Positions 2,936 to 31,835 of a stretch of 64,000 nucleotides of DNA are shown here, in pieces. The position numbers and the translations under genes are program-made. Each line of letters begins with the position of its first letter. Within the stretch, counting starts at the first letter, position 1. Source of the stretch: Euglena gracilis. Lineage: Eukaryota. The DNA is taken from the NCBI GenBank assembly GCA_039621445.1, contig CP154954.1, positions 24,936,954 through 25,000,953 of the forward strand, given 5' to 3'. Under the pieces are notes generated by a model. The model made no database searches and was not told the DNA's origin. It worked only from the letters and a program-made list of their open reading frames with translations.

Positions 2936-3242
2936 CATGACCATACCATCATAAGACATACTCCGCCATTATGTTAATGGTCACTCTGTATGCATTTGTC
3001 ATGGACTTTTATCAAAATTTCTTAAGGAATGTCATTTTGGCCATTTTTTTTTGCCAAACAAGCGCTCTTGTAGTGAACTTCAACAGTGAAGTTAACTTCA
3101 CCAGTGAACCGAACAAGGCATCGCGTGACAGCGTCATGCACCTCCATAGCTGTGACGGCGCCCCCCTCCTCCGTGCCCGCCTCACATCACGTCCCACCTG
3201 TTCCCTGATCCATTCATCTGTCCATTTTCACAAAAAAAACTG

Positions 3243-3425
3243 CGTCAACGGGTGCATTATAGTGCACCCGTTGACGGTGGAATCCGTTAACGGGTGCCCA
3301 CATGGGAAATCGGGGTCCGTCAACGGGTGCACTATAGTGCACTTGTTGACGGTGGAATCCGTTAACGGGTGTCCACATGGGAAATCGGGGTCTATCAACG
3401 GGTGCACTATAGTGCACCCGTGGAC
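3243..3425. repeat. ~75-bp tandem units each containing the palindrome CGGGTGCACTATAGTGCACCCG
   Basis: Three units seen directly; repeated at ~16903-17085. Confidence 0.85.
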
Positions 3426-4705
3426 GGACCCCGATTTCTCACGTGGGGAAGCCCGTGAATGGTTAACGGTTTTAACTTACCCTCACCCCCCTCAAAATGT
3501 CCCCCCCCCAAACGTGGCCAAATTTTTTGGCAAAATTTGGTTTTTCCCCTCAAAGGGTTTACCCCTGATTTTCCTTCGACACGACAAAGGCCAAAATTTG
3601 ACCTCCCCTCCAAAGTGCCCCCCCCTTGAGGGGGGGGGTGAGGGTAGTGAAATTAAGTTAGTTAAGCTAACATCATTGAGGCAGATGAGGGGGAGGGTTT
3701 CCGGGACCCCCCCCCAGTGAACTTCACCATAGTTTCAAACAGTGAGCTTCATGGGAGGTCAAAATGCAAGGAATGACTGAGCAAGGAAAGAGGGGTCCTG
3801 GGGTGTGTGATTTTTGTAAATTTCATAACTTTCACAAATTTCAAAAGTTACCGTAAGTTACGGTAAGTTACGGGTGTGCAATTTATAAATAATAAATTAC
3901 ACAAAATTTGCAATGCCACAAAGAAGTGCTTTTTTTGGCCGCGCACGGAGCGCGCGGCCCCCAAATTTGCCATTTTATGTCCGAAAATGGTCATTTTTGG
4001 TCATTTTTGGGCCTCAAAAAAGTCGCGTTTTTTTCACAAAATTTTTTTGCTTGGCTATGCTAGGCACAGTGGGGGGAGGGGGGGTCCAGGGGGGGCGAGC
4101 GGCCGCGCGGGCGGCCGCGCAGGGGCCGCGCAGGGGGGGGGGGAGGGGGGCGTCCCGGACCCCCCCGAGCGGCGCGCCTAGCCTCCAAAGTATGGTTTGG
4201 GAGTTTCATAACGAGTTTTTTCAATGAAATGTTCCTTTCCTTTTTTTTGATATTTTTTTTGCTGTTTTTTTTTAAAATAAACATGTTGTTTTTTTTAATA
4301 AAAAAAAAAGCAAAAAAATGCCCACTATGCACCCCCCCTCCCCCCTCCCCCCCCCCCGGGTCCACGACTGAAAAACCCCTGTTACCAATGTTGTTTGTAT
4401 GTGTTGTTTCCTTTTTGCCGCCCAAAGGACGGCGAGACGGTAGCACTTTTTTGAAAGAAGGCATTGAACGTGACAAAAAAATGTGGCAATTTTTTTGACA
4501 TCGTGCCAATTTGACATTTTAACACCATCACAATTTGAAAGGTTTCAAGCTGCCAACGGGCGGCAAGACGGCTTTGCCTTTTGTGTTTTGGGATATCAAA
4601 CGAGGGAAAATTGCAAAAAAAGAGTCCTCGGGGCCATTTTGTAGAACAAAAAAAATATATTGCCGCCCAAAGGGCGGCTGGATGGTAGCGCAATTTTCCA
4701 AGAAC

Positions 4706-7413: not shown

Positions 7414-7716
7414 TCTCCTCACCCACACCTGCAGGGAGATGCCCTGCCCGTGTCCACCGTGCTGTGGCACCTGCCAATTCGTACAGATGTAGAAAGAAAG
7501 GTGAAGACAATGAAGTGCAGACACTGGTGGACAGTGGCATCGAACACACGGTGGGCACTACGCCTACAGTACTGCTTTTCTCGTTTTTTTCTTATTGAAC
7601 TGCATCGTACAGATAGCTTGGGTGGTAGAGCATTCTTCCCAGAATTGGGAGGTCGTGGGTTCAAATCCCACTCTGTGCGTGTTTTCCCCGTTCAGATATT
7701 TTTGTTATGGTTTTGC
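7414..7716 (+). repeat. 303-bp direct repeat, copy A
   Basis: Nearly identical to 8269-8571 with only scattered substitutions. Confidence 0.9.
7607..7678 (+). pseudogene. tRNA-like sequence with degenerate anticodon arm
   Basis: Acceptor GTACAGA/TCTGTGC, D-arm GCTT/GAGC, T-arm GTGGG-TTCAAAT-CCCAC; anticodon stem pairs poorly. Confidence 0.65.
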
Positions 7717-8268: not shown

Positions 8269-8571
8269 TCTCCTCACCCACACCTGCAGGGAGATGCCCT
8301 GCCCGTGTCCGCCGTGCTGTGGCACCTGCCAATTCGTACAGATGTAGAAAGAAAGGTGAAGACAATGAAGTGCAGACACTGGTGGACAGTGGCAGCGAAC
8401 ACACGGTGAGCACTACACCTACAGTACTGCTTTTCTCGTTTTTTTCTTATTGAACTGCATCGTACAGATAGCTTGGGTGGTTGAGCATTCTTCCCAGAAT
8501 TGGGAGGTTGTGGGTTCAAATCCCACTCTGTGCGTGTTTTCCCCGTTCAGATATTTTTGTTATGGTTTTGC
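8269..8571 (+). repeat. 303-bp direct repeat, copy B (tRNA-like at 8462-8533)
   Basis: See copy A. Confidence 0.9.
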
Positions 8572-16086: not shown

Positions 16087-16465
16087 CATGCAGTCACCTT
16101 CAAGGCAAATGGTCTAACCCAACGCCACACCATACTCCAGCACTGCCTACTTGCCACAGCACGAGAGGCTGGTATTACTTCCTCTAAGTAGTATTGCGAC
16201 GTAATTTACAGTTGTAAGTTTCGCTTGTAACTTACGCGTAACTTACGGCATAATTCATTTTTTAATTTCCGCCGTGTAATTTATGTTCTGCCTTTTTTTC
16301 AAAAAAATGCAGTTCAAGGTCTTTTTTTACAGCCAAAGGGGGAACCATTTTTGGACCCGAAGGCAGCAACCTGCCTGAAAAAGTGCATTGGCTTGAATGA
16401 ATTCCAAAGTAAAAATCAGCGGTCTCGCGTCATCAGCGGTCTCGCACCTCAAAGGAAAAAGCGGT

Positions 16466-16536
16466 GTGGCCTCGTGGGTTTCGAACCCATGACCATACCA
16501 TCATAAGACATACTCCGCCATTATGTTAATGGTCAC
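16466..16536 (-). pseudogene. Degenerate tRNA-like (A-box/B-box) module inside hAT-type element
   Basis: Minus strand GTGACCA-T-TAACATAATGG...ATGGGTTCGAAACCCAC-GAGGCCAC; interrupted in copy 1 by the 1067-2935 insertion. Confidence 0.5.
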
Positions 16537-16599
16537 TCTCAATTCTGAGAGAGCGCAGTGTTCCCCCTGGCACCCCCTCCTGTTGCATTGTGTCCTCGC

Positions 16600-16737
16600 T
16601 GTGGTGTGTGTGCGTTCGGTGGCACTGAGGTGGCCGCAGCCAAAAGTGTTCGTTGCTCCGTCTGTGGTGAGGTATATCATTTTGCGTGTGCTGATTTGCG
16701 TTGTGACCCAAAAAAGGAGTGGATTTGTGCCGGTTGT
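16600..16737 (+). pseudogene. PHD finger coding fragment
   Basis: CGVC-x14-CSVC-x4-H-x2-C-x10-WICAGC matches the C4HC3 PHD pattern with the conserved W. Confidence 0.75.
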
Positions 16738-18133
16738 CGTCAAGTACCAGTCCCCCCCGACCATGCCGAACAAGGCATCGCGTGACAGCATCATGCACCT
16801 CCATAGCTGTGACGGCGCCCCCCTCCTCCGTGCCCGCCTCACATCACGTCCCACCTGTTCCCCGAGGTCCATTCATCTGTCCATTTTCACAAAAAAAAAC
16901 TGCGTCAACGGGTGCACTATAGTGCTCCCGTTGACGGTGGAATCTGTTAACGGGTGCCCACATGGGAAATCGGGGTCCATCAACGGGTGCACTATAGTGC
17001 ACCTGTTGACGGTGGAATCCGTTAACGGGTGTCCACATGGGAAATCGGGGTCTATCAACGGGTGCACTATAGTGCACCCGTGGACGGACCCCGATTTCTC
17101 ACGTGGGGAAGCCCGTGAATGGTTAACGGTTTTAACTTACCCACCCCCCTCAAAATGTCCCCCCCCCAAACGTGGCCAAATTTTTTGGCAAAATTTGGTT
17201 TTTCCCCTCAAAGGGTTTACCCCTGATTTTCCTTCGACACGACAAAGGCCAAAATTTGACCTCCCCTCCAAAGTGCCCCCCCCCCTTGAGGGGGGGGGGT
17301 GAGGGTAGTGAAATTAAGTTAGTTAAGCTAACATCATTGAGGCAGATGAGGGGGAGGGTTTCCGGGACCCCCCCCAGTGAACTTCACCATAGTTTCAAAC
17401 AGTGAGCTTCATGGGAGGTCAAAATGCAAGGAATGACTGAGCAAGGAAAGAGGGGTCCTGGGGTGTGTGATTTTTGTAAATTTCATAACTTTCACAAATT
17501 TCAAAAGTTACCGTAAGTTACGGTAAGTTACGGGTGTGCAATTTACAAATAATAAATTACACAACATTTGCAATGCTACTCTAAAGAAGCCCAACTACCT
17601 CTTGATGACTCCCGACCTGGTGACGTGCTCTTTCATACCTGGCGGGGTGGACCACCCTTGGCTATTCATCTTACTATTGTGCTCCCATTACGACCTTCTG
17701 AACCCCGCTCCTCACCAGACTCTGTCAAGAAAATGTTACTACGTGAAGAACAAGCAAACTCAACAAATATGCGGTGGCATGTGAGAAAGTCCAATGGGAC
17801 TTCAAAGCACTAGTTTTTTTTTAAAGCAAGGAAATACAGAAAAGACAGCTTCGTCAGGACCAAAACAAGACCCCTTGCCGAAGTGCAATGACATCTTGGC
17901 AGCCCGTATATCCCATTCTGGGCCCGGTGGGGTATGGGGTGCGATGGGCAAGACAGTGTGGCACTTGCCAGCAGGTAATCGTCCTTGACTAATGTTCGGC
18001 CGCATTGATCCGTGCAAATTTTCGACCTTGGGGGTCTCCGTCGGCACCTCCAACGGGGATTGCCTTTTTGGTTTGCCCTCAGTTTCCCCATCGTTAAGAG
18101 GCCACCGCCTCTCCAACCCGGCACAAAAAGACA

Positions 18134-18184
18134 GGGCGGGGGAGCCTATTGTCTTGCGGCGATGTGGAGAGCAACCCGGGGCCT
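18134..18184 (+). other. 2A-like ribosome-skipping peptide GRGSLLSCGDVESNPGP
   Basis: Matches the D(V/I)ExNPGP consensus; 15/17 identical to Thosea asigna virus 2A GRGSLLTCGDVEENPGP. Confidence 0.85.
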
Positions 18185-18537
18185 CCTACCCGGCGGCTTG
18201 ACAATCCCACAAGCAGGAGCGACCACCTTTCTCGCAGTGAAGTGGAACACAATATGGGTCCGCAACTACCGGAGGGAACGGTACCGTCCCCCCGCCGGGC
18301 AATGGACTTTGACATGACCACAGATCCGGAGCGGGCGGTTGGATTCCTGCTGGCCACAACCCTTGTGCCACCCCTGGCTGCCGGCCCGATGGAAGTGGCC
18401 TCCACCCAGGACGCGAACAACCTGCAACAGCTGTTACAAGACCTCATAAGCCGACCACCCCCGGAAGTGTCACTTGGGGGGTCCCAAACACCAGGGGCCC
18501 AAGCGCCCTAGATGATGCCGACGTGGAAATGAATGCC

Positions 18538-19712
18538 GGGGGTGGTGCGGGTCACGGGGGGGTCACGGGGGGGGGGGGTCACGGGGGGGGTCACGTGGGA
18601 AGTATGCCACTTTGGAGGTGGTCGGGAGGCAGCATCCATTTTGTTGCATCCCATCACGAGAAGGGCGGCACGCCTCCTAAAATCGGTGATTTTGGGGTCC
18701 AAAAAGTAATCATTTTTTGGCCATTTTGGGGCCATTTTTGAACAAAAAAAAATTGGTTTGAAAATGGCGCTTCTTTGCTATATGAGTTTGACCCAAAACA
18801 TTGGCAAAAGGGGAGATTGCGCAAGTGGGAAAGAAATTCATGGCAAATCTGCAACCAAAACAAATTTTTTTGGCTACCATTTTCAAAGAGGCAATCAAAA
18901 AAAAACGTTTTTTGGGGGTTTTTTTGTGTTTTTTTTAAAAAAAACGCCAACGAGGGTTTGGGAATTTTTTTGGGGAAAAAACACAGTCTCACCTCAGTGA
19001 TGGTGAAGACGAGTAGCTGTTGCGCCTTGTTTCCGCTTCATCCAAGTCCGTCAAACTGAGTGGTCTTCAAAAATGGGAGTTCTTGATTTGCTTTGCCTTG
19101 TTTCTCAAAAGTTGGCCGGAGGTTAGGGAACCTCAGTTGCAAAACCCATGCCGAGAGGTGGGGGGGGCAAATAATGTGATTTCAAAGAAAAATCCACTTG
19201 ATCAAAAAAAAACGCAGTTTGTTTAAAAAAACGCAGTTTTTTAAAAACAAAAACACAGTTTTTTTCAAACAAAAACACGCTTTTTGCCAGCTTTGCCTTT
19301 TTTTTCCCCTTCAAAAATAGCCATTTAGCCATCCCAAAAAATGTAACGGTCAAGAAAATCCTGACAAAATTCCTTATCAAAAATGAAAAAAATGACCAAA
19401 TTTGGACATAAAAATCACCCAAAAATGACCACTTTCAATGTTTGGGTCGAATTTTTTCCCCCCTCAAATCTTGGCATTTCTTTCCATTTTTAGACCATGT
19501 CAAGGCAAACTTTCAATGGTTTGAACCGGAAAATTGATGAAAAGCAACCAAAAACGCCACCTAGATATCAAAAAGCAGGCTGAAATGATGAATGAAAAGA
19601 AAGGCTGAAGTGATGAAGGTTGATGCATTGTATGAAAATCGAAGGCTCGATTCTCGGGTCACGGGCGGGTCACGGGGGGGTCACGGGGGGGGGTCACGGG
19701 GGTAGCACCCCC
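18538..19712. mobile_element. GGGGGTG...CACCCCC element, 3-bp TSD gcc
   Basis: gcc|gggggtg ... caccccc|gcc; subterminal gggtcacg repeats at both ends. Confidence 0.7.
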
Positions 19713-20044
19713 GCCGTGTTCCTGCCGGGAATGAAAACGGGCACTCCATTGACGGATCCGTGCCCATCACTGTCACCCTCGTGGACAGACATTTCCCTGG
19801 ACCACCGGGGGACGGTATCCATCATCCCGAAAGGGGCCTTGCCGGCCGTCTGTGATTCATACGCAAACCAACATGGGAGACCCTCCACGCCTTGTGGGCC
19901 TTCCCAAAGTCTGTCCTAGCGCCCTTGGGGAAAGGAGGGCGGGGCCACTGGGCTGCTCCTGCTCCTGGCTAACATCCGCTCAATCCTTCTGTGATGACCC
20001 CCGTCGACACGAATTGTTGACACCCGTGCCTGGCCACCGCTTTG

Positions 20045-20546
20045 GGTGGTGCGGATGGTTTCGCAACCCAACCCACAACCCAACCCACAACCCCCCCCCA
20101 CAAATGCCGGTCCCACCACCACTGCTCGACATCTCTGTAGACACGGGTTCGAATCCCGGTCGTTGGGGGCGACTTCCTGTTTTCTCTTAGGCGGCAAAAA
20201 TAATTTTCATAAAAGTACATGGACGAAAATGATATCGCCCCCCGTGGCATAGCGGTTCTGTGGTTAGCGTGTGACCGGTAGGTCGCGGGTTCGAATCCCG
20301 CCGGGGGGGGGGGGCAACTTCGTGTTTTTCTTGATTTGACGCGAGGAGGAGAGGGAAGCGGTGAATGCTTTTCGAAAGGAAGGAATTTTTTTCTTGGTCC
20401 GGCCGGCTGGCAAGACAGGCATTGGTCCGGCTTGACGGACGGCTGGCGAAAAAATGCTTCGTCCGGACGGACGGCTGGGCGTCCAGCATTGGTCCGGCTG
20501 AAGAGGTCCGGACGGCTCGTCCGGACGGACGGCCAGCCCGCACCCC
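20045..20546 (+). mobile_element. TIR element with two tandem tRNA-like modules, TSD ttg
   Basis: Removal restores LATALEGTEKL in CRE2. B-boxes GGTTCGAATCC at ~20146 and ~20288; GGAC repeats near the right end; related to 23695-25107. Confidence 0.7.
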
Positions 20547-21116
20547 TTGGAAGGGACAGAAAAATTGAAGTTCTCCTGCCAGATGAAGCCACATGCCATG
20601 GCATGGGCCTCAGTGACACCGTGTGCCTCGACCAAAACACTGATTCCCACCAGAGAATTTCAGGCAATCGTCCAGTGGTGTCTGGGTGCGCCGGTGGTCA
20701 GCGCTACGGACAGCCCACCTGCCTGCCCAAGGTGCCACAACCCCACAGATGTCAGAGGCCACCACCTTGTCTGCTGCCACAAAAACAACATTATCCGGCG
20801 GCACAATGCGGTGCAATCACACATCCTCGGGCTCGCGCAGCGTGCAGGCTTCCCAGCCAGAAGGGAAGAAAGTGCCCCAGATGGCTCACGACCAGGCGAC
20901 GTATTCGTCATGAGGTACGATGCAAACGGCCCGGCAGCCATCGATGTCACCATTCGTCACCCACTTGCGCCTTCGCGAAATCGCGCTGGCTTGGAGGATA
21001 TTGGCAGGTGGCATGAGGCACAAGAGCAGGACAAGATAAAGAAGTATGGAGATGGTTGCCAACGCAGAGGCTGGACATTCATACCCTTTGTCTTGGACTG
21101 TTATGGTGGCATGGGG

Positions 21117-21572
21117 TAAGGTTGCCCGATTAATCGATCTTGAGGCTGTCGATCGGTAATTGCCGATTAATTGGGGGGGCCGATCAATTAATCGATTAAT
21201 GCTCTCCTTTGTGGAAAGAAGTTTTCACACCAGAGTTTGCTCCAAGTGTTTTGCGAGCGAACCCGGATGATGAATCGGTCAAACCCCTGATGTCAGTTCG
21301 CATGAATATCCCACGTTTGTTGACCCTTTCTGCCCTGTAAAGGAGGAGGTGGACGAGTGACGGTTGAAAGAAATCGTGTTTCGCAAATGATCCATCTTCT
21401 GTGTTTGTTGCATGCCATTGTCATCATCTTGAAGTCAAGCATGCGGACTTTATCCATGTGCAATGGGTGATTTTTAACGGAGGCGGTTATTTTCGATTAA
21501 TTGACCCCCCTGCCGATTGAATGATTAATCAGGGGGTCTCGATCGATTAATCGATTAATCGAAGCAACCTTA
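21117..21572. mobile_element. hAT-type MITE TAAGGTTGC...GCAACCTTA
   Basis: Flanks catgggg / catggggg; subterminal CGATTAATCG palindromes. Confidence 0.8.
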
Positions 21573-21621
21573 CATGGGGGATGGTGCGCTCACCTTTGTT
21601 GGTAACTGCATCCAGTTGCTA

Positions 21622-21828
21622 CCACCCCCCCCTTTATTTGACCCCCCCCCTTAATTGAGCATTTGGGTCCGGGGAAAATTTTTTTTCATGCGCCGAAGGC
21701 GCCGAAAATTTTTTTTGCCCTATTTCTAAAGGAATTTTTGACCCCCCCCTTATTTGACCCCCCCCTTATTTGAGCATTTGGGGGGTCCGTTGGCCCGTGG
21801 GTGTGCTCAAATAAAGGGGGGGGGGTGG
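21622..21828. mobile_element. TA-TSD MITE CCAC(n)TTTATT (Tc1/mariner-like)
   Basis: ta|ccacccc...ggggtgg|ta; removal restores QLLAGQ. Confidence 0.75.
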
Positions 21829-22489
21829 TAGCAGGCCAACACGGCGCCTGGGAGAGGAGGGGCGTCGAGGGGACCTGCTGGCAAGGAATAAGCATGACTC
21901 TGGCCCGGGAGGTTGGATGACAATTGGTTTGGGGACAATGCCCCGAAGAGCTCGCTGACCATAGCCTCCCTGAATCTCATAAACCCTACTGTTCTTCATA
22001 GCCCCGAGGCTTAGCACCAAACACCCGAAATGGAATACCAAAAGCCGAGAACTCTCTCCGGACGTCCACCATGGAGGTGCAGAAGTCACACACAATCGAA
22101 GGGGGGGCTGAACCCGCGTGAGGGACCTCAAGCCAAGTGCCAGCCAGGTCCACCATACAACCTCTTCAAGCGCACCTCCTGACCCGAACCTGGTGCAGTA
22201 AGAAACGAAGGGCCCGTCCACCCAATCCAGATCTCAACGACCAATCAGAATTGCGGTGGTCGAGAACAGGATTACAAATCGCCTGTGCACCCGCAGCATG
22301 TCGAGATCTTTTCGCTAAGCTCACCCCTCTTACTGCCCCCGCACCTCTCACGGACTCTTTCTTCTGTACTTAGCCTCACTCCCCTGAACTCGTCAAATCC
22401 AGTAGGCTGTGCCACTGGTCGGTGGACTCGGTTCGCCCCACCACCGCCTGTCTCTCAAGTGCACTAGTTTCATGAAATTTGGTTGTATA

Positions 22490-22663
22490 CCACCCCCCCC
22501 CTTTATTGTCCCCCTTTATTGTCCCTGGGCCCCGGCCGACGGGGGGTTTTTTTGGCCCGGCCAATGAAATTCCTTTGGTACCCCTTTATTGTCCCCCCCC
22601 CCTTTATTGTCCGGTCGGGCCTCCTGGGGGCAGGTCGGTGGGACAATAAAGGGGGGGGGGTGG
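22490..22663. mobile_element. TA-TSD MITE with the same termini as 21622-21828
   Basis: ta|ccacccccccccctttattgtcc...ggacaataaaggggggggggtgg|ta. Confidence 0.75.
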
Positions 22664-22723
22664 TAGTCAAGCCTGTTGGGAAAAAAAGTCCACCAGAATA
22701 TTCCTGGAAAGAATCCCAAAGTG

Positions 22724-23194
22724 CAGGGGGGGGGGAAATGCGCTCGCCCGGCCTCGGAAAAAATGTGCAAAAATGCGCAAAAATGCGCAAAAAATGCGCA
22801 TTTTTGGAAAAAATGCGCAAAAATGTGCAAAAATGTGCAAAATCCGAGAAAAAATGTGCAAAAATCACGAAAGTGCAAAAATTACCCAAAAACATGCAAA
22901 AATGGCACCAAATTTGAAGAAATTATGTGGAATAGTGAGGAAAATGTGTGTTTCAAAAAAAGTCAAAAATTTCAAATTTTTGCAAAAAAATGCAAAAATG
23001 GTCAAAAAATGCGAAAATTTTGGAAAATCACGAAAAAATGTGCCAAAAAGCAAAAAAATGTGCTGAAAAAAAACGAAAAAATGCGCAAAAAATGCGAAAA
23101 AATGCGCAAAAATGCGCATTTTTGGAAAATTTGAAAAATTGCGCAAAAATGCGCAAAAATGCGAAAAAATGCGAAATGCATTCCCCCCCCCCTG
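22724..23194. mobile_element. CAG(G)n...(C)nTG MITE with AAAAATGCGC repeats
   Basis: Flanks share caaagtg; reverse-orientation copy at 43322-43774. Confidence 0.8.
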
Positions 23195-23694
23195 CAAAGT
23201 GGTGGCAAAGTCATTTTTTCCTTGTCTTGTGGCCGTGTTGACCAAATGGTGAGCCATAATCTCAATCTCATCTGGGGGGGAGCACGCCGTCGACCAGCCG
23301 TCGGCCAGGAAAATGACCCGAGCCACAACCTTGCAATGCAGAAACAATTTCGCCGCCAATCTCCCTTCAAGGTCATGTTCATCGTTGGTGGAAGCTGCAT
23401 TTTTGCCCGTTTGAAGTCATTTTTCGTCAATTTTTTATCAATTTTGCCAACTTTGGACTTTTTTTAGCCTTTTTTTTTGACCACGTCAGCCTTTTTTTGG
23501 GTTATAATACAATCATTGTGAAGTGTTATTTGCCTACATATTATTCGAATGACTAAAAAATGCTCAGCTGGTGTCCCACTGGCAAAATTTACCTATAATG
23601 CACACCAAATGTTGGCATTAGGTGCTGAAATTAAGCAATTTTCACCCCGAAATGTATATTTGCCACTCACACAAAATTAGGCATTTGCCACTCA

Positions 23695-25107
23695 GGGGGC
23701 GGACGGACGGACGGACGGACGGCTGGTGAAAATTGTGAAGGTCCGGACGGACGGCTGGCCTTGTGGGCTTGGTCCAGACGGCTGAAGAAAATTCAAAAGG
23801 TCCAGCTAGCCGGCCGGCCGGCTGGCCGGCTGGCCGGCTAGCCGGCTGGCCGGCTAGCCGGCCAGGTCTTTGGAAGCGCAGGCGATGGAAAAACGCGAAC
23901 AACACGGATTCCTATTTCATTACCTTTTGTCACACAATGTCCGCAACCTCCTGGAGATGCCATCTGGTTCCCCGCAATTGATACCTACATATCCAGTATT
24001 TTTTGCCGAGCCTGTTTCACCACCGCTTTGCTTACCACGTACCAGTTTCTGGTTTTGCTGTCCATTGTCCATTGGTGTACCCATGCCATGCTGGAGCATT
24101 ACTTTTTGCTTTTACTGGAGCATTGCAAGTAACTGCTGGGCCCCAGCAGCCCCTCACAAGCCCACCAGCAGTTCTAATTGCCACAGCTGTTTGTTTTACG
24201 TATCCAGTGTCGTGTTTTGCCCTCTGCAAATCTGGAAAAGGGATGGTGGCACATCTGCTGGAATCACCTACCCCCTTCCACCAAAACTTTGGGCCCCCCA
24301 GAACACCCCCAGTCATTGGGGGATGTGCACCCAATGCCCATTTCACGTATGGGTTCGCCCAGGGGTTTCCCCCAGATTTGGGACCCTCCAATTCTGGGAT
24401 GGGTGTGACCTTGCCCCAAACCCGTTTCAGTGGCAGATGCCCCCCCTTGTGGGACAAGGCTGTCAGAAAATTAACTGCCACACTCCTGCCCCCCCTGCAG
24501 GGAAACATGGTTTTGGCACCCCCCTGTGCCCCAACCCCGGGTATGTTGACGACCAACCGACACATTGCAGAATGTGGCCCCGTCACCACTGTGGAGCTGA
24601 ATAAGCATCTGAATATCATTTGGTAGAGATGGGCAAGGGCAGAAGATAAATGGCACTTGTCAATACATCGTCAGTGTAGTTCAGCGGTCAAAGTGCTAGG
24701 CGACGTCTCTGAAGACACGGGTTCGAATCCCGGGCGCCGCGGGCGAATTTACGTTTTTCACTGGGGCGGGAAGAATAATTTTCATAAAAGTACGCGGACG
24801 AGAATGGTATCGCCCCGTGTGGTTAGCGTGTGATTGGTAGGTCGCGGGTTCAAATCCCGCCGGGGGGCAGTTTTGTGCTTTTCTTGTGTTTTTCCTGATT
24901 TGACACCACGAGGAGAGGGACGCCGTCACTGCTTTTCAGGGAGAAGGATTTTTTTTTGTTTCCGGCCGGCTGGCCAGACAGACATTGGTCCGGCTGGACG
25001 GACGGCTGGCGAAAAAATCGAAGGTCCGGACGGACGGCTGGGCGTCCAGCATACGTCCGGCTGAAGACGTCCGGACGGCTCGGACGGACGGACGGCCAGC
25101 CGCCCCC
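23695..25107 (+). mobile_element. GGGGGCGG-TIR element, TSD tca, with tandem tRNA-like modules (~24668-24745, ~24811-24867)
   Basis: tca|gggggcgg...ccgccccc|tca; right ~400 bp homologous to ~20127-20540. Confidence 0.7.
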
Positions 25108-25439
25108 TCAAAATTCGGAATTTACACATGAAATTAGGAATTTCCTCCTCGAACTAGGAATTTGTCTCTCAAAATTCGGAACTGGCACGCCAAATTAGGC
25201 ATTTGCTACCCATATGAGACAGACAACCTGACCCAGCTTCCGTCACGTCGTCGGCCAGCCGTCGGCCAGCCGTCGACCAGCCGTGTGCTCCCCCTGGAGT
25301 GGTTTGCTTTGTTGTGGTCGGCTGCACTGTTTGCCAACAGCAGGCTTTTGTGTTTGCCCTTTTTGTTTCATTTTTTCCCCTCGTGTAGGTTTTCATGTCA
25401 ACAACAGTTGTGTCCTTCCCCCGCTCCGCTTCAAAGGAG

Positions 25440-26460
25440 CAGCGCGGCTTTTCGGAAGCACCAAAGAGCGTGCAGGGTTTCCCACCCTAGCTTTGACACA
25501 AATTCGGCCGAGGAGGGGATATGCACCAAGGTGCCCGGAGTGTCTTGGGAAATTTCTTCCCAAGATGGTTGCAATGGTGGCAGGGTTGCGAGAAGGGAGT
25601 GACTCTGTGGCCCAAAACCATAGTGGGCCGGCCTGTTTTTTTTGACGTTGTTTTTTTGTTTTTTTAAATTCTAACAATGCTTTTTTAAAAAAAAGAAAAA
25701 AAAGTGCCCAGTGGGTTTTGCATGGAAAATTTTTTGACTGCACATTTTCAATGATTTTTGGCAACTTCTGGGTAATTTCTGCCAAAAACTTCCTTCCACA
25801 AAAATGAAAAATGTCATAAAATTCCATTTTTGTTGCATTTTTGGATGTTTTTGACCATTTTTGGCAGTTTTTGAACTTAGCAGGATTCAAAGTATGGTTT
25901 GGGAGTTTCATAACGAGTTTTTTCAATGAAAGTTTCCTTTTGTTTTTTTTGATGTTTTTTTTACTGTTTTTTTAAAAAAAACACGTTGTCTTTTTTAAAA
26001 AAAAAAAACAAAAAAAATGCCCACTATGCCCAAAACCATGAATTTTGGCAATCGTTGAGCGTACCCGGGACTCTAGTCCGTCAATGACCATGATTTGTTC
26101 AGCTGCAGATGCCCCGGGGTCCCCGTTCAAATGGGGAAAGGGCATGATGGCCTGGAGCAGGCGAGAAAAGCGGCGCCGAGAGCACTGGGAACCAAGATCC
26201 GCAGAGTGGTTGTTCCATTTGAGGCGAGCAAGAGCTTTGCGAGGCTGAGACCATTTGGACGTCCTCCTGCTGGGGGCAGGATTCTGTGGGGCCTGGGTTG
26301 CTTTCCATGTCGGCACAACTGGCAAAGCTTTTGCCCCTTCCAAAGCGGCGGGGGGTGGTGCCGTAAACAAGCAGCAGGGGGGTTGTGCCATATTGTGTAT
26401 TCTTATGGTCCTTCAAAGTGGCATTCGGCTGGTCAGATTGCTGTCTGCTATGGCCTTCCA
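25440..26460 (-). pseudogene. Degenerate 5' part of another CRE-like element with 2A-like motif (26288-26341)
   Basis: GRGKSFASCADMESNPGP; downstream RVRSTIAKIH..PKTLRAPW..GGK resembles CRE2 TVSIIP..ETLHALW..GGR. Confidence 0.55.
25619..26028. mobile_element. Intact CATAGTGGGC MITE
   Basis: Exact 8-bp TSD cccaaaac; 10-bp TIR. Confidence 0.9.
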
Positions 26461-27049
26461 CTGAGGATTTAGGAGAGAGGGGGGTTGCGTCCAACAGGAT
26501 GGGGCCAATTGGGGCCAGATTTTCTGGAAATGTCTGGGGGGCTGGGCCCAGCAGGCTGGGGTAAAATGGGGCCGGACGTTTTGGCCAAAAGTTTTTGAAA
26601 TATGAGGGGGGATGGGTCCAAAAGGCTGGGGCAAAATGGGGCCAGCAGTTTTGGAAATGTCTGGGCGGCTGGGGGGGTAGCTACATCCTGGGGGGGGGGG
26701 GTAGTGGGGGTCGACCATGGTCCACCCACGGTCGCCCTCGGTCGCCCTCGGTCGTGGGGGTCGACCGAGGCCAGGCCGTATTCGGTCGTGGGGGTCGACC
26801 GAGGGCGACCATGGTCGACCCCCACCCCATGACAGGAACCCCCCCCCTTTTCAGGGGCGACCATGGTCGACCCCCACCCCACGACGGGAAACCCCACCCC
26901 CTTTTGAAGGGCGACCATGGTCGACCCCCACCCCACGACGGGAAACCCCCCCCTTTTGAAGGGCGACCATGGTCGACCCCCACCCCACGACGGGAAACCC
27001 CCCTTTTTGAAGGGAGACCATTCGACCCCCACCCCAAGACATGCCCCCC

Positions 27050-29648
27050 AAAACGGGTGGGCAACAAAAGGGATATGCCCCCCAAATGAGTTGGGCAACA
27101 AAAGGGATTTGCCCCCCAAAACGGGTGGGTAACACAAGGGATTTTGTTATTTTGGGGCGCTCGAACAGTTGGGCCACAAAAGGGATTTGCCCCCCAAAAC
27201 GGGTGGGTAACACAAGGGATTTTGTTATTTTGGCGCCCTGGAACAGTTGGGCAGCAAAAGGGATTTGCCCCCCAAACCGGGTGGGTAACACAAGGGATTT
27301 TGTTATTTTGGGGCCCTCGAACAGTTGGGCAGCAAAAGGGATTTGCCCCCCAAAACGGGTGGGTAACACAAGGGATTTTGTTATTTTGGGGCCCTGGAAC
27401 AGTTGGGCAACAGAAGGGATTTGCCCCCCAAAACGGGTGGGTAACACAAGGGATTTTGTTATTTTGGGGCCCTGGAACAGTTGGGCAACAGAAGGGATTT
27501 GCCCCCCAAAACGGGTGGGTAACACAAGGGATTTTGTTATTTTGGGGCTCTCGAACAGTTGGGCAACAAAAGGGATTTGCCCCCCAAATCAGTTGGGCAA
27601 CAAAAGGGATTTGCCCCCCCAAACGGGTGGGTAACACAAGGGATTTTGTCATTTTGGGGCCCTGGAACAGTTGGGCAACAAAAGGGATTTGCCCCCCAAA
27701 TCAGTTGGGCAACAAAAGGGATTTGCCCCCCAAAACGGGTGGGTAACACAAGGGATTTTGTTATTTTGGGGCCCTCGAACAGTTGGGCAACAAAAGGGAT
27801 TTGCCCCCCAAATCAGTTGGGCAACAAAAGGGATTTGCCCCCCCAAACGGGTGGGTAACACAAGGGATTTTGTTATTTTGGGGCCCTCGGACAGTTGGGC
27901 AGCAAAAGGGATTTGCCCCACAAAACGGGTGGGTAACACAAGGGATTTTGTTATTTTGGCGCCCTGGAACAGTTGGGCAACAAAAGGGATTTGCCCCCCA
28001 AATCAGTTGGGCAACAAAAGGGATTTGCCCCCCAAAACGGGTGGGTAACACAAGGGATTTTGTTATTTTGGGGCCCTCGAACAGTTGGGCAACAAAAGGG
28101 ATTTGCCCCCCAAATCAGTTGGGCAACAAAAGGGATTTGCCCCCCAAAACGGGTGGGTAACACAAGGGATTTTGTTATTTTGGGGCCCTGGAACAGTTGG
28201 GCAGCAAAAGGGATTTGCCCCCCAAAACGGGTGGGTAACACAAGGGATTTTGTTATTTTGGGGCCCTGGAACAGTTGGGCAACAAAGGGGATTTGCCCCC
28301 CAAAACGGGTGGGTAACAAAAGGGATTTGCCCCCCAAAACGGGTGGGTAACACAAGGTATTTTGTTATTTTGGGGCCCTCGAACAGTTGGGCAACAAAAG
28401 GGATTTGCCCCCCAAATCAGTTGGGCAACAAAAGGGATCTGCCCCCCAAAACGGGTGGGTAACACAAGGGATTTTGTTATTTTGGGGCCCTCGAACAGTT
28501 GGGCAGCAAAAGGGATTTGCCCCCCAAAACGGGTGGGTAACACAAGGGATTTTGTTATTTTGGGGCCCTCGAACAGTTGGGCAGCAAAAGGGATTTGCCC
28601 CCCAAAACGGGTGGGTAACACAAGGGATTTTGTTATTTTGGGGCCCTGGAACAGTTGGGCAACAAAGGGGATTTGCCCCCCAAAACGGGTGGGTAACACA
28701 AGGGATTTTGTTATTTTGGGGCCCTGGAACAGTTGGGCAACAAAAGGGATTTGCCCCCCAAATCAGTTGGGCAACAAAAGGGATTTGCCCCCCAAAACGG
28801 GTGGGTAACACAAGGGATTTTGTTATTTTGGGGCCCTCGAACAGTTGGGCAACAAAAGGGATTTGCCCCCCAAATCAGTTGGGCAACAAAAGGGATTTGC
28901 CCCCCAAAACGGGTGGGTAACACAAGGGATTTTGTTATTTTGGGGCCCTGGAACAGTTGGGCAGCAAAGGGGATTTGCCCCCCAAAACGGGTGGGTAACA
29001 CAAGGGATTTTGTTATTTTGGGGCCCTCGAACAGTTGGGTAGCAAAAGGTATTTGCCCCCCAAAACGGGTGGGTAACACAAGGGATTTTGTTATTTTGGG
29101 GCCCTCGAACAGTTGGGCAACAAAAGGGATTTGCCCCCCAAATCAGTTGGGCAACAAAAGGGATTTGCCCCCCAAAACGGGTGGGTAACACAAGGGATTT
29201 TGTTATTTTGGGGCCCTCGAACAGTTGGGCAGCAAAAGGGATTTGCCCCCCAAAACGGGTGGGTAACACAAGGGATTTTGTTATTTTGGGGCCCTGGAAC
29301 AGTTGGGCAACAAAAGGGATTTGCCCCCCAAATCAGTTGGGCAACAAAAGGGATTTGCCCCCCAAAACGGGTGGGTAACACAAGGGATTTTGTTATTTTG
29401 GGGCCCTCGAACAGTTGGGCAGCAAAAGGGATTTGCCCCCCAAAACGGGTGGGTAACACAAGGGATTTTGTTATTTTGGGGCCCTCGAACAGTTGGGCAA
29501 CAAAAGGGATTTGCCCCCCAAATCAGTTGGGCAACAAAAGGGATTTGCCCCCCAAAACGGGTGGGTAACACAAGGGATTTTGTTATTTTGGGGCCCTCGA
29601 ACAGTTGGGCAGCAAAAGGGATTTGCCCCCCAAAACGGGTGGGTAACT
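27050..29648. repeat. Homogeneous satellite: 78-bp units with optional 34-bp subunit (112-bp variant)
   Basis: aacagttgggcaacaaaagggatttgccccccaaaacgggtgggtaacacaagggattttgttattttggggccctcg, with or without atcagttgggcaacaaaagggatttgccccccaa. Confidence 0.95.
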
Positions 29649-29847
29649 CAAGGGTCGGGGTCGACCATGGTCGCCCCCCGATCAGGGGGGGGGGGTTTCC
29701 CGTCGTGGGGTGGGGGTCGACCATGGTCGCCCTTCAAAAGGGGGCAAGACTGGGCAAATTTCACGATTTTTTATTTTTTCAGAAAATTTCAAAATTTTCA
29801 ATATTTTCAATATTTTCATTGAAAAAATGGGAGAATCCTAATAGGAA

Positions 29848-31835
29848 ATGCCCAAGCGGCCTATTCATACTTATGGGAACGATTTCGATGTTCTCACAAG
29901 GGACAAGCAATTGAAGGCGCTGACTGTAAGATGCAAGCACTGCCCCTGGGAAAGTGTCTTCAATATTACAAGAATGAAGGAGCACTTGGCATCAAAACAC
30001 GCAGAGGATGGTCCCAAGACAAAAAAACAATGCACGTTGTTTGCATACGCCGACCGATCATTTGGCCCCTCCCAGCAGGAGCGAACAACCAGCCTTCTGG
30101 CGATGCTGCAAGTGCACTATGGGCTGTCATTCTCTGCCGTGACCAGTATGGAAATGCAGAATCTTCTGAAGTATTTGCGGCCAGAGGTTCACGTGCCGTC
30201 CCGAAGGACATTGCAAAGACGAGTGGACGGCCTGTACCACAGCCTGAAGGACAAAGTGTATTCCTTTCTACAACAAGTGGAGAGTGTGTCTTTGATGATC
30301 GATGGGTGGGAGGACCACAACAAGTGTGAGTGCATCGCCGTCACTGCCAAGCCACTGAATCCATCCCTGCATCCTGTGCTGATCCGCTTCCATCGTATGA
30401 CCACCCGTGCGACAACAGAACAGTTGCATGAATGTTTGGAGGTTTGCCATTTGTAATCGGCCCATCCAATTTGTCATCTTTGGTCAGGGCTGTGTACGAG
30501 ATCTTCTGTCTGCGGGTTGCAAAGTGGTGGCTGCATGTGCTGACAACGCCCGCAACATCCAAGGAGCTGTGAACACACTCAACAACAGCCACAGTTGTAT
30601 TCCACTCAACACTGCATGAAGCCCTGAATTAGACTGACAGAGCATGTGACCGAGTTCATTGTGTGGCTCAAAGGAGATGATGCCACGTTGGGGGCTGCGA
30701 TGCAGCGTTACATCGACTTACGCGGACATCTGGAAGAGGTGCTTGCAGACCTGCCGAGCAGTCTGCGAAAACATGGTCAGCACAGGCAACCACAGGTCAC
30801 CTTGGGCTTGGGCAGGGTTGGGTGCAATGCTCGTCCAGAAAAGGTTCCCTGGGGAAGTTTGTCTTTGTAGTATGCTAGTCCATGGTGCGTCCTGGAAATT
30901 GCATTGCCTGGTGTGGTTATGAGGTGTCTTTGTAGTACGTTTCTGTCTGTGGTGTGCATGGCCCCATCCTTCATCGAGGAACGCGACACGTTCTTCTTTC
31001 GGGACTGGAGCTGCCTGGCGTACATCATGGACCCGAACTACAGAGGTGCCCAGTTGGGTCCTCATCCAGGCACTTCCACATTGTCATCCCCATTGTCCTG
31101 AATTTGCACTTAAAATTTTTTTTGATTTCAGGCAGGGAAGCGGTTTCTGAAGCTGTGCCGTAATTCTTACTCTTTTTGTTTTGCATTCTTTTTGCCTTGC
31201 ATGACCTCTGCTGATCTGCTGTTGGGGGAACCTGAGCCTGACGGTTGAGGGACACATTGGCCTTCTTCCATGCGACGGCCTGGAAGACCGTCATGGGCGA
31301 CGCCGAAGCGCCCACTGCTGACGACATGTGCGACTATTTGAAGCTGGATGGAGTTTACTCTGTACCTCCTGGAATGCAGACCAGGGGCTTTCAGTTTACA
31401 GTTGACCCCCTAGCCTCTGCCGTAAAATTTGCAGCCCCCCCCCCCAGCCTCAGCCGTAAAGTTAGCAGCCCCCCCCCCCCCCCAGCCTCAGCCGTAAAGT
31501 TAGCAGCCCCCCCCCCAGCCTCAGCCGTAAAGTTAGCAGCCCCCCCCCCGCCCCAGCCGTAAAGTTAGCAGCCCCCCCCCCCCAGCCTCAGCCGTAAAGT
31601 TAGCAGCCCCCCCCCCCAGCCTCAGCCGTAAAGTTAGCAGCCCCCCCCCATCCTCGGCCATAAACCCCCTGCTGCAGACTGAGGGTTTGTCGGGGTACAA
31701 GTGGTGGGGCCTCTACAAGGACACGAACCTCAGTGCATTTGGCGCACTCCTGTGTGGTATACCGGCATCAGCAGCAGCAGTTGAAAGAGTCTGGTCTGTG
31801 GCAGGCCATCAGGTGGGTGATCGTGAATCGTTGGC
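29848..31835 (+). pseudogene. hAT transposase (BED finger, DDE, dimerisation domain), intron-containing, probably internally deleted
   Basis: RCKHC..MKEHLASKH; MIDGWED; GT-AG intron 30442-30487 joins CLE|GCV..ADNARNI; LAYIMDPNYRG; WW..IPASAAAVERVWS. A stop at ~30617 occurs where the CxxH motif is expected. Confidence 0.85.
31382..31671. mobile_element. CAGGGG...CCCCTG MITE inside transposase coding sequence
   Basis: TSD atgcagac / ctgcagac (7/8); internal ccagcctcagccgtaaagttagcag tandem repeats; removal gives PGMQTEGLSGYKWW. Confidence 0.8.

Follow-up and report, generated by a model that had tools for sequence, protein, structure and literature searches.

A T2A-like peptide in Euglena gracilis as the probable last 2A site of a polyprotein-encoding, RLE-type non-LTR retrotransposon family

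The peptide GRGSLLSCGDVESNPGP, encoded on the plus strand at 18134-18184 of a 64-kb stretch of Euglena gracilis DNA (64,000 nucleotides of contig CP154954.1, hereafter the window), is a real 2A/StopGo peptide and neither a chance match nor a viral insert. Very probably, it is the last 2A of a family of R2-like non-LTR retrotransposons of the restriction-like endonuclease (RLE) type, without an APE, whose single ORF is a polyprotein linked by 2A sites. Because the copy in the window is a dead relic, the biological weight of the window taken alone is small.

The earlier note had described the peptide as near-T2A, with two differences in 17 residues. Its GRGSLL-CGD context is T2A-like. Over the last nine residues, there is one difference from GDVEENPGP, the motif given for Thosea asigna virus, and the 9-mer GDVESNPGP that is actually present is listed with ~99% cleavage for Providence virus and ~90% for cricket paralysis virus (PMC8623073 Table 1). 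The residues DVESNPGP, encoded at 18161-18184, conform to the class A motif D(V/I)ExNPG|P as defined in the available text of PMC3708506 and 10.64898/2026.09.24.754024. The predicted break falls between the Gly codon at 18179-18181 and the Pro codon at 18182-18184; ribosome skipping at this and the other predicted sites of the family is an activity that we infer from their sequence. A six-frame scan of the window returned one canonical match to D[VI]E.NPGP, and 100 block shuffles returned none (mean 0.0, max 0), which argues against a chance match. The possibility of an endogenized RNA virus fragment might be raised by P0017, a viral-type capsid protein (Peptidase_A21) that has a 2A motif too. 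However, P0017 matches over the 2A itself only (query aa 6-38), and the flanks of the 2A match retrotransposon proteins, not viral ones, so we give chance or viral origin next to no credence. The 2A is held by a 137-aa open frame at 18098-18511, which begins directly after a TAA at 18095-18097; neither this frame nor the RLE ORF of the window had a meaningful match in Pfam.

Full-length metagenome proteins, among them P0037 (1513 aa), run colinear with 18116-21998; in P0037, aa 374-518 correspond to 18107-18510 and aa 1454-1513 to 21834-21998, in the same order and orientation (tblastn). These full-length relatives, which are gene calls on metagenome or transcriptome contigs with at most 50% identity to the RLE part of the window, arrange in a single ORF the 2A sites, a conserved N-terminal domain, the reverse transcriptase (RT), a CCHC motif, and the RLE. 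A canonical 2A upstream of RT-RLE and in the same ORF is found in 6 of 36 RT-RLE proteins, the 36 being P0037, P0042, and 34 further matches. The number of [DG][VI]E.NPGP sites is two in P0037, three each in P0044 and P0045, and one in P0050; P0042 has four and a weaker NIESNPGP, hence five NPGP sites, and P0049 has two together with two variant sites. The remaining 30 proteins are without a canonical 2A, and among them P0046-48 begin too near the RT to judge. In a quick maximum-likelihood tree of 32 rows, many of which fail the composition test, the six 2A proteins and P0046-48 form one clade (SH-aLRT 99), in which all six relatives that extend far enough upstream carry one to five 2A sites. 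The earlier note had asked whether, at the level of the family, the 2A is in frame with RT-RLE. It is: in P0037, P0042, P0044, P0045, P0049, and P0050, the 2A lies in frame and upstream of RT-RLE within one ORF, and in these full-length relatives it is placed neither in a noncoding frame nor in an APE-encoding or unrelated element.

The sites themselves are well conserved. From 55 NPGP sites in 18 relatives, we derive the consensus GRGxxLL[ST]CGD[VI]ExNPGP, in which E at -5 and V or I at -6 occur in 52 sites each, D at -7 and G at -8 in 49 each, and L at -11 and -12 in 40 and 41, respectively; the GRGSLLSCG that precedes the motif in the window agrees with the GRGxxLL[ST]CG part of this consensus. 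A metagenome scan with alignment A2 yielded 93 relatives, 80 of which were retained at 22 to 52% identity. None of these 80 loci had a canonical 2A, and two had a GEA[AS]NPGP variant, suggesting that the trait is confined to one subclade; on the ends or targets of the 2A clade, such distant loci are uninformative. When P0037 was used, the metagenome scan gave 15 pattern matches and no confirmed one, and the Protein Atlas gave nothing usable (best score 0.88, RVT_1 clusters only). The closest relative of the window 2A frame is P0008, with 86% identity over aa 6-133 of the 137-aa frame. When longer proteins close to P0008 were sought, just P0044 and P0011 were returned, matching over the 2A alone, and no full-length copy from the organism itself was among the results.

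The RLE domain reported in the earlier note is borne out by seven homologues of the ORF at 20502-21119, with 50 to 53% identity among 1558 scored candidates, two of which have RVT_1 upstream. Likewise, the window RLE retains the invariant positions of the family alignment, namely C-x2-C...H...C, RH, E, PGD, D-V-T, and K. The family profile A1 matched the R2 structures 9nl3 and 9dou at E 1e-32 in a single stretch from RT through RLE, aligned with R2 residues 409-1158 and colinear with the R2 RLE, as against just 1e-12 and the RT alone for LINE-1 ORF2p. The relation to R2 is distant, since P0037 by itself found no PDB chain at E<=0.01. The RVT_1 domain of a non-LTR RT is present in all six 2A-bearing relatives and missing from the window copy, and a CCHC motif and a PD-(D/E)XK nuclease lie C-terminal to the RT. 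By sequence profile (Pfam), no APE (Exo_endo_phos) was detected at E<=1 in P0037 and P0042 or at E<=0.01 in P0044, P0045, P0049, and P0050. These comparisons support the predicted affiliation of the 2A with an RLE-type non-LTR element that is R2-like and, by Pfam, has no APE. Conceivably, an APE-type or Dualen-type element, or else a host gene, could be the source of the 2A, with an unrelated RLE fragment simply lying beside it, as the 2A-bearing non-LTR clades named in the literature portions available to us are APE-type or Dualen. We consider this very unlikely, given that the 2A is flanked to its left and right by residues homologous to proteins that extend into RT-RLE and that the Pfam result for the APE holds in six of six full-length relatives.

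What the 2A sites might separate is suggested by the modules that lie between them in the relatives, which are SLBP-like RNA-binding, zinc-finger-like, and Dam-like methyltransferase modules. SLBP_RNA_bind was matched in P0045 at 50.6 bits (Pfam cutoff, 27) and Dam in P0042, P0021, and P0015 at 37, 31.3, and 28.7 bits (cutoff, 28.1); Dam in P0037, P0044, and P0045 and SLBP in P0044 remained below the cutoffs. The Dam-like module, in which an NPPF motif is present, resembles the methyltransferase region of a DIRS-like element in the window (23% identity over 95 aa, pairwise E 0.007), and P0015 matches 60984-61406 of that element at E 9e-6. The earlier note had proposed that the polyprotein may be cotranslationally split from an upstream product. 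The relatives do have real upstream modules, and cotranslational release is the natural reading of this arrangement, with skipping itself predicted from the motif. In intact relatives, the ribosome would leave the Gly-Pro bond unformed at every D(V/I)ExNPG|P, thereby freeing the SLBP-like, zinc-finger-like, and Dam-like modules, which vary by member, as separate proteins, and would then proceed into a product comprising the conserved N-terminal domain, RT, linker, CCHC, and RLE. Once released, the modules may act as proteins in their own right. In its most far-reaching form, which we put forward as quite possible but tentative, an RLE-only LINE clade has turned its ORF into a StopGo polyprotein in which two to five 2A sites free SLBP-like, zinc-finger, and DIRS-derived Dam-like modules ahead of RT-RLE.

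Alternatively, the 2A-like sites, real and conserved as they are, might act mainly as translational brakes that tune how much of the upstream modules is made relative to RT-RLE, through a lower yield of the downstream RT-RLE or through stalling and decay in place of clean separation. According to the accessible part of PMC13405545, 70% of the ORF1p-type and 59% of the ORF2p-type retrotransposon 2A-like peptides tested reduced protein abundance, for which reason clean skipping should not be assumed here. Highly active 2A peptides were found in just 43 of 580 RT-element contigs in the accessible part of 10.64898/2026.09.24.754024. On the other hand, the family consensus is near the most active viral class, GDVE[SE]NPGP at ~90 to 99% (PMC8623073 Table 1), and the GRGxxLL[ST]CGD context is retained at most sites. 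Braking and skipping are, moreover, not mutually exclusive. A predominant role as brakes thus seems rather unlikely to us, and we prefer the release of modules by skipping.

In the window copy, the 2A is not within an intact ORF, since the TAA lies 12 codons upstream, no ATG occurs between the two, and a frameshift follows near 18475. The in-frame stop at 18095 that the earlier note recorded is indeed present (18095-18097, plus strand), but it lies to the left of the start of family homology at about 18114-18116 and hence belongs to a rearrangement breakpoint instead of being a point mutation of the canonical ORF. Near 18114, the 5' end of the copy has undergone inversion or truncation, and the segment from 17922 to a putative right-hand limit at 18113 (minus strand) is an inverted copy of the sequence that canonically lies just upstream of the 2A. 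Thus, P0008 aa 38-59 match 17987-17922 on the minus strand with an alignment score of 39, which was reached by 2 of 300 shuffles, and opposite-strand joints connect 17909/17928 with 18114/18116 in three contigs of X1 and one of X6. As the upstream sequence is inverted, nothing canonical stands upstream of the window 2A. The inversion may have arisen during insertion, by twin priming. The preceding segment at 17817-17921 starts with a T run and has no match to P0008 or the family proteins; nowhere else along the stretch is the summed contig depth as low as in its bin, 17854-18030.

Downstream of the breakpoint, the direct segment at 18116-18534 (plus strand; 88% identity to P0008 aa 58-178) contains the 2A and the start of the RT-bearing product. 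The loss of one base near 18475 changes its frame, and three contigs each of X1 and X6 have an extra G behind 18475. A 1178-bp nested insertion with GGGTCACGGGG-type flanking repeats occupies 18535-19712. It is skipped by the joint 18534->19713 in two contigs of X1 and two of X6, and P0008 is continuous at this point. Parts of this insertion recur elsewhere in the window. Next, at 19713-19957 (plus strand), comes the N-terminal domain (..SWTDISLDHRGTVSIIPKGALP..) that is conserved in the RT-bearing product, with 75% identity to P0008 aa 198-272 and 57 to 71% to P0037 aa 509-588 at 19743-19957 (tblastn). The window copy lacks the RT, as P0037 aa 589-1245 have no counterpart (tblastn). The site of this deletion, 19958-20546, holds a tRNA-Thr-like SINE at 20127-20547 (81% identity to 24701-25108; tRNA-like call at 20238-20309), and other copies run on upstream of 20545 with linker-like sequence, seen as a loose end. 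The linker, the CCHC motif, and the RLE domain are at 20547-21113 (plus strand; 50% identity to P0037 aa 1246-1437). Two MITE-like insertions follow, one at 21110-21572 with inverted ends ..GGTTGC..ATTAATCGAT.. and one at 21613-21828 with inverted ends CCACCCCCCCCTTTATTTGA... The first is skipped by the joint 21109->21573 (463 bp) in two contigs of X1, two of X6, and one RNA read of X24, and the second by the joint 21612->21829 (216 bp) in two contigs of X1. A unit similar to the second is present at 22489-22665. The C-terminal tail of the ORF at 21834-22000 (plus strand; 47% identity to P0037 aa 1454-1513) ends with a TAG at 21998-22000 and, as read from the sequence, has an internal stop or frameshift. 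All three nested insertions of the window copy are absent from other copies in the same organism. Lacking both the RT and an ATG between the TAA and the 2A, the window copy itself is functionless. Its history probably began with an insertion that was inverted or truncated a short way 5' of the last 2A. Afterwards, the copy lost its RT at the site where the tRNA-like SINE is now found and acquired the 1-base frameshift and the three nested insertions.

The 3' untranslated region at 22001-22460 (plus strand) contains a very highly repeated unit at 22394-22446, with a depth peak, copies that end at 22446, and loose ends before it at 22393/22394. Loose ends behind 22446 amount to 118 records in X1 and are present in X21 and X24 as well. 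The predicted RNA fold of 22340-22460 was nothing unusual (z -0.58). As for the 10-bp target site duplication of the earlier note, the repeat GCACTAGTTT does occur at 17807-17816 and again at 22461-22470 and is plausible as a duplication. It is the sole 10-mer common to 17500-18135 and 21990-23500. Rough independent support for the boundaries comes from a flanking-repeat contig that ceases to match at 17809 and from the loose ends at 22446. No empty-site joint 17816->22461 was among the 15 joints listed (134 further joints are unlisted), and no long terminal direct repeat around the element was found in the window. The left flank of the element reads as a decayed RLE-like coding fragment.

These ends also bear on whether the piece with the 2A (18116-19957) and the piece with the RLE (20547-21998) might be two neighboring insertions of the same family. 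The RT is wholly absent, with a SINE at the gap, the family is multicopy with a second fragment 5 kb off, and by arithmetic estimate chance alone would yield about 0.9 such 10-bp repeats over the wide search space. However, the two pieces lie on the same strand in the order seen in P0037 and have diverged from it to about the same extent. Furthermore, in boundary zones of 140 x 50 bp, set independently at 17809 and 22446, GCACTAGTTT is the sole shared word of at least 8 bases, with a chance expectation of about 0.007. We therefore regard two insertions as distinctly improbable and a single decayed copy as the better reading; the conclusion on the family stands under both. The second fragment is another decayed family copy, with a degenerate 2A-like site, GRGKSFASCADMESNPGP, at 26288-26341 (minus strand; six-frame scan) and the N-terminal domain at 25407-25580 (minus strand; 41% identity to P0037 aa 516-586), where the ORF at 25431-25670 (minus strand) contains ..PSWEEISQDTPGTLVHIPS... 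Hence, this copy likewise couples a 2A-like site with the N-terminal domain.

Elements of the CRE clade (CRE1/2, SLACS, CZAR), to which the earlier note had likened this one, insert site specifically in spliced-leader RNA genes, and their RT protein has an N-terminal C2H2-type zinc finger. Named relatives of the present family were confined to the R2 structures. At Rfam gathering scores, which cover curated families only, no spliced-leader, rRNA, or other RNA-gene target was found at the insertion flanks of the one copy searched, and the 64-kb window gave three tRNA-like matches only. The stretch between the window 2A and the RLE is the family's own conserved N-terminal domain, and inspection by eye revealed no C2H2 finger between 2A and RLE in the window, P0037, P0044, or P0045. 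Also by eye, C-x-C...H...H segments were seen after the last 2A in P0011, P0012, P0018, and P0049 and, among distant relatives, at the opening of the ORF of P0051, P0055, and P0070; Pfam called zf-C2H2 in P0069 only. In the RNA runs, of which ~5 to 6% each was read, 118 reads of X21 and 230 of X24 matched the window. These matches were mostly partial and mainly on repeats, so that they neither support nor refute expression. Within the same ~5 to 6%, the 2A bin (18031-18207) had a depth of 0 in each of the two runs, and 20686-21039 had a depth of 1.8 to 2.9 in X24, in both orientations.

As far as the accessible parts of PMC3708506 and PMC3894237 go, recoding by 2A has been framed as a trait of "young" APE-type LINEs and tied to the loss of ORF1. 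Here, the 2A occurs in the "ancient" RT-RLE layout, with several sites per ORF that string on extra modules. If the sites skip, acquisition of 2A is unlinked from APE architecture, and the family would offer a naturally occurring cellular polyprotein with multiple 2A sites, along with a testable idea of how single-ORF LINEs may gain an RNA binder or a methyltransferase. If the polyprotein reading is true, the SLBP-like RNA binder could be a stand-in for ORF1p, which would amount to an answer to the "ORF1 problem" separate from that of APE-type LINEs and to the first Dam-carrying LINE. Besides, the 55 sites offer dozens of natural T2A-like variants for structure-activity work. Our literature search found nothing on 2A in RLE-only elements or on Dam in LINEs; supplements of 2026 preprints could hold cases. 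With 2A previously described in APE-type and Dualen elements, its occurrence in an RLE-only LINE would be new.

Among known systems, the viral class A 2A peptides share their last nine residues with the window peptide in the motifs of Providence virus and cricket paralysis virus; in contrast to these, the window peptide resides within a cellular retrotransposon with no viral genes around. R2 (9nl3, 9dou, 9nl2, 8gh6) has the same order of RT, linker, CCHC, and PD-(D/E)XK nuclease, but by Rfam no rRNA gene was found at the window insertion site. To our knowledge, no 2A is known in R2. With DIRS and LTR retrotransposons, to which Dam domains are assigned in the available text of 10.64898/2026.05.21.726589, the family shares a Dam-like (PF05869) module inside a retrotransposon; in that text, Dam is not assigned to RLE-type LINEs, and the term "2A peptide" has 0 occurrences. 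SymbioLINE elements (PMC5890265), by the text at hand, are APE-type and make up a different family.

Dualen/RandI elements reportedly carry both APE and RLE, as is said to have been described by Kojima and Fujiwara in 2005. Those of Haematococcus lacustris carry 2A-like peptides, according to the available part of a 2026 preprint (PMC13405545), and the view that 2A is unknown outside APE-type elements needs to be softened to this extent. In common with the window family, Dualen/RandI belongs to the non-LTR lineages and combines a 2A-like peptide with additional N-terminal domains, which the same text gives as deubiquitinases and repeat domains, in contrast to the SLBP-like, zinc-finger-like, and Dam-like modules described here. 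A further difference is that in the window family the RLE is present and an APE was not found by Pfam. The APE-type elements are likewise comparable in part. Heras et al. 2006 is reportedly a source for 2A-bearing APE-type non-LTR retrotransposons. Those named in the available text of Odon et al. 2013 (PMC3708506) are L1Tc/Ingi, Rex1, CR1, L2, L2A, and Crack. Like them, the window family has a class A GD(V/I)ExNPGP in the N-terminal part of a long RT-encoding ORF, where, as far as that text goes, the 2A is considered to detach upstream functions from the RT protein. In those elements, however, the APE is N-terminal to the RT and there is usually one 2A, whereas in the window family the RLE is C-terminal, Pfam detects no APE, and one to five 2A sites separate recognizable modules.

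The translation of 18134-18184 on the plus strand, GRGSLLSCGDVESNPGP, bears out the earlier note's reading of this segment as a 2A peptide: D[VI]E.NPGP occurs a single time in a six-frame scan of the 64 kb and was absent from each of 100 shuffles that kept the local composition. Its upstream half, we assume, resembles that of the Thosea asigna virus 2A (T2A). The peptide lies inside a 137-aa open frame (18098-18511) that starts directly behind a TAA at 18095-18097. Among 1.84 billion representatives, this frame found 29 matches (E<=0.001), the best of which, the 272-aa database protein P0008, is 86% identical across residues 6-133. Most of the other matching sequences retrieved carry several 2A motifs apiece, and the similarity to the viral capsid-type protein P0017 is confined to the 2A.

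The RLE open reading frame at 20502-21119 found no match in Pfam; its 7 homologues (50-53% identity) lie among longer proteins, and in 2 of them RVT_1 precedes the region of similarity. Built from 16 RT-RLE proteins, a profile matched the R2 structures 9nl3 and 9dou (E ~1e-32) as one continuous alignment that spans RT to C-terminal nuclease, with the C-x2-C, RH, E, PD, D-x-T, and K positions in register; its match to LINE-1 ORF2p (E ~1e-12) covered the RT alone. Pfam detected RVT_1 in the six full-length 2A-bearing proteins and the APE domain (Exo_endo_phos) in none of the six. On this basis, the family is a lineage of RLE-type non-LTR retrotransposons, and one distant from R2, since the full-length reference P0037 as sole query matched no PDB chain. 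Its assignment to the CRE clade, proposed in the earlier note, is tentative. At the insertion site of the window copy, Rfam recognized no gene for spliced-leader RNA, rRNA, or snRNA.

A cluster look-up yielded P0037 and P0042, long members of 1513 and 1805 aa, and the RT-RLE part of P0037, a query free of 2A bias, retrieved 34 proteins, giving 36 with these two. In 6 of the 36, a canonical 2A lies upstream of RT and RLE in one ORF. Sites of the form [DG][VI]E.NPGP number two in P0037, in tandem, three each in P0044 and P0045, and one in P0050, at residue 8; P0049 has two, plus two variant sites, and P0042 has four, plus a weaker NIESNPGP, hence five NPGP sites. The core of the earlier claim, a 2A in an RLE-type retrotransposon, therefore stands on these relatives, in which it is in frame upstream of RT-RLE, whereas details claimed for the window copy do not.

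The other 30 proteins have no canonical 2A upstream. Three of them, P0046-48 (40-46% identity to P0037), are uninformative in this respect because their ORFs start ~35-75 residues ahead of the conserved N-terminal motif; the remaining 27 are at most 31% identical, and several begin, as judged by eye, with C2H2-like fingers. The six 2A-bearing proteins and P0046-48 form one clade (SH-aLRT 99) in a 32-row maximum-likelihood tree, a quick search in which many rows failed the composition test, with P0003, P0069, and P0071 omitted as partial and P0076 and P0077 also outside. A canonical 2A was found in 0 of 80 more distant loci in a scan of metagenome contigs. Its presence in one clade and absence from distant relatives and these 80 loci make the 2A a trait of one subclade. 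In two distant RT-RLE relatives from metagenome loci (L008:844 and L010:746), the ORF that encodes the RT (995 and 743 aa) also has, ahead of the RT, ..C-R-[GV]-..-GEA[AS]NPGP, an NPGP end without the D(V/I)E core that may be a variant recoding site.

The consensus GRGxxLL[ST]CGD[VI]ExNPGP derives from 55 NPGP sites in 18 relatives, a count that includes one non-2A-like NPGP near the P0037 C terminus. E at -5 and V or I at -6 each occur in 52 of the 55, D at -7 and G at -8 in 49 each, L at -11 in 40, and L at -12 in 41. The 2A sites of relatives are separated by recognizable modules: an SLBP-type RNA-binding domain (P0045, 50.6 bits with a cut-off of 27; P0044, 20.1 bits, under the cut-off), Cys/His-rich segments, and a Dam-like methyltransferase domain with an NPPF motif (P0042, 37 bits; P0021, 31.3; P0015, 28.7; cut-off, 28.1), for which P0037, P0044, and P0045 score under the Pfam cut-off. 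The final 2A always stands ahead of a product that opens with a conserved ..W..I..D.RGT..HIPRGA.. domain, followed by RT-RLE. The Dam-like module is similar to the methyltransferase region of a DIRS-like retrotransposon at the other end of the window (58395-62307, plus strand). That element has a 1033-aa frame with RVT_1 (E 6e-9) and a Dam-like region (PF05869; E 0.0016, under the cut-off) and a further ORF at 61468-62307.

The window copy itself is a fossil, and it is the family that merits full description. By tblastn, residues 374-518, 509-588, 1246-1437, and 1454-1513 of P0037 match 18107-18510, 19743-19957, 20547-21113, and 21834-21998, respectively, in the same order as on the protein, and nothing corresponds to residues 589-1245, the entire RT. 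In its details, the earlier interpretation fails for this copy, which lacks the RT and in which the upstream sequence is inverted and the stop belongs to a junction. The RT gap holds a tRNA-Thr-like SINE copy (20127-20547; 81% identity to 24701-25108). Its tRNA-Thr(CGT)-like sequence (20238-20309) sits in a ~420-bp unit with an 81% identical copy 4.5 kb off on the plus strand, and further tRNA-like Rfam matches lie at 7607-7679 and 8462-8534. Possibly, these are real tRNA genes; to us, the tRNA-related repeats of the window look like tRNA-derived SINEs.

Other copies were assessed by aligning to 17500-22800 the contigs from two DNA runs that bear the same organism label (X1 and X6). These copies lack 18535-19712 (joint skipping 1178 bases; two contigs in each run), an insertion point across which P0008 runs uninterrupted, as well as 21110-21572 (463 bases; 2 + 2 contigs and one RNA read) and 21613-21828 (216 bases; two contigs of X1). 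The frame change in the window copy arises because an extra G behind 18475 of some other copies (three contigs in each run) is missing here. Upstream of 20545, other copies run on into linker-like sequence (a loose contig end). Summed contig depth, which is not copy number, increases between the 2A part and the 3' end, consistent with frequent 5' truncation. The last ~53 bases of the 3' UTR (22394-22446, plus strand) stand far above the remainder in summed depth, are sharply delimited in many records, and may be a unit common to a non-autonomous partner repeat. Small MITE-like units at 21613-21828 and 22489-22665, with inverted ends CCACCCCCCCC-TTTATT.. and ..AATAAA-GGGGGGGGTGG, are missing from the organism's other copies (joints skip 216 and 177 bases).

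Similarity to P0008 and to the other copies begins at ~18114-18116. Three contigs of X1 and one of X6 join 17909/17928 to 18114/18116 on opposite strands, and the minus strand at 17987-17922 aligns with P0008 residues 38-59, the stretch ahead of its 2A (score 39, matched by 2 of 300 shuffles). Together, these joints and this alignment indicate that the sequence expected upstream of the 2A is present but inverted. Such 5' inversion is familiar from LINE-1 twin priming; a later rearrangement is a possible alternative. The TAA at 18095, described earlier as an in-frame stop, does exist, but it lies left of the start of homology and, because the upstream sequence is inverted, is part of the junction rather than a mutated position in the canonical frame. 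Upstream of its 2A, the window copy has no canonical sequence and no ATG. The 10-bp repeat said to enclose the element, GCACTAGTTT, is present at 17807-17816 and 22461-22470. A 10-mer match is expected ~0.9 times by chance in a wide search space (by arithmetic) and is weak on its own; a flanking-repeat contig stops matching at 17809, many records diverge behind 22446, and these narrow boundary zones have no other word of >=8 bases in common (expectation, ~0.007). A target-site duplication is therefore plausible, with no empty site seen.

The surrounding sequence is repeat-rich eukaryotic DNA. A second copy of the family has a minus-strand 2A-like site (26288-26341) that reads GRGKSFASCADMESNPGP, and ~700 bases downstream, beyond low-complexity filler, 25580-25407 (minus strand) matches the N-terminal domain (P0037 residues 516-586, 41%), so that 2A and N-terminal domain are paired twice within the window. 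To its left, the window copy borders on what looks like a decayed piece of RLE-like coding sequence from another repeat. On that side lies a second repeat family (16212-17816 and 669-3916, both plus strand). It encodes a PHD finger (16549-16785; PF00628, E 3.7e-5), and its end, ..KLNKYAVACEKVQWDFKALV.. at ~17750-17816, is RLE-like and decayed; 16766-17576 and 3109-3916 are 97.8% identical. It may be another RLE-type LINE that served as insertion target for the 2A element. Long arrays of a ~75-bp tandem unit at 26400-29700, open in several frames on both strands (..FGGQIPFVAQLF.GPKITKSLVLPTR..), are in our reading satellite-like DNA and not a gene. A 203-aa frame at 29845-30456 (plus strand), in which ..CKHCPWESVFNITRMKEHLASKH.. 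forms a Cys/His segment and ..DGWEDHNK.. also occurs, looks by eye like a hAT/BED-type transposase fragment.

At the 2A sites of viruses and APE-type LINEs, the ribosome lets go of a nascent chain that ends in ..NPG and then carries on from Pro (PMC3708506; 10.64898/2026.09.24.754024). By analogy, we infer that skipping at each 2A of an intact family member would turn its one ORF into several proteins, with the upstream modules made apart from the RT-RLE enzyme. In the principal functional alternative, these sites would chiefly reduce downstream yield, as described for 59% of the ORF2p-type 2A-like peptides of retrotransposons (PMC13405545), and highly active sites were found in only 43 of 580 RT-element contigs (10.64898/2026.09.24.754024). 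The final nine residues of the window 2A, GDVESNPGP, are a motif tabulated with ~99% cleavage in Providence virus and ~90% in cricket paralysis virus, that of Thosea asigna virus being GDVEENPGP (Table 1, PMC8623073).

The clades for which Odon et al. (2013) described 2A, namely Rex1, Crack, L2, L2A, CR1, and Ingi, are without exception APE-type (PMC3708506), and a 2013 commentary frames retrotransposon 2A in the same way (PMC3894237). It is also reported, along with DUB fusions, in Dualen/RandI of Haematococcus (PMC13405545), and a survey section without clade detail counts 330 class A contigs among RT elements, mostly non-LTR-like (10.64898/2026.09.24.754024). Our literature search found no 2A in RLE-only LINEs, no multi-2A LINE polyprotein with SLBP, Cys-His, and Dam modules, and no Dam-carrying LINE, though the 2026 survey supplements may well include cases of each. 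Where the published clades combine 2A with APE, this family combines it with RLE, APE being absent by Pfam. Likewise, Dam domains have been placed in DIRS and LTR elements (10.64898/2026.05.21.726589), whereas here a Dam-like module appears in an RLE-type LINE. With R2, the family shares the order of RT and C-terminal nuclease, across a distant relation.
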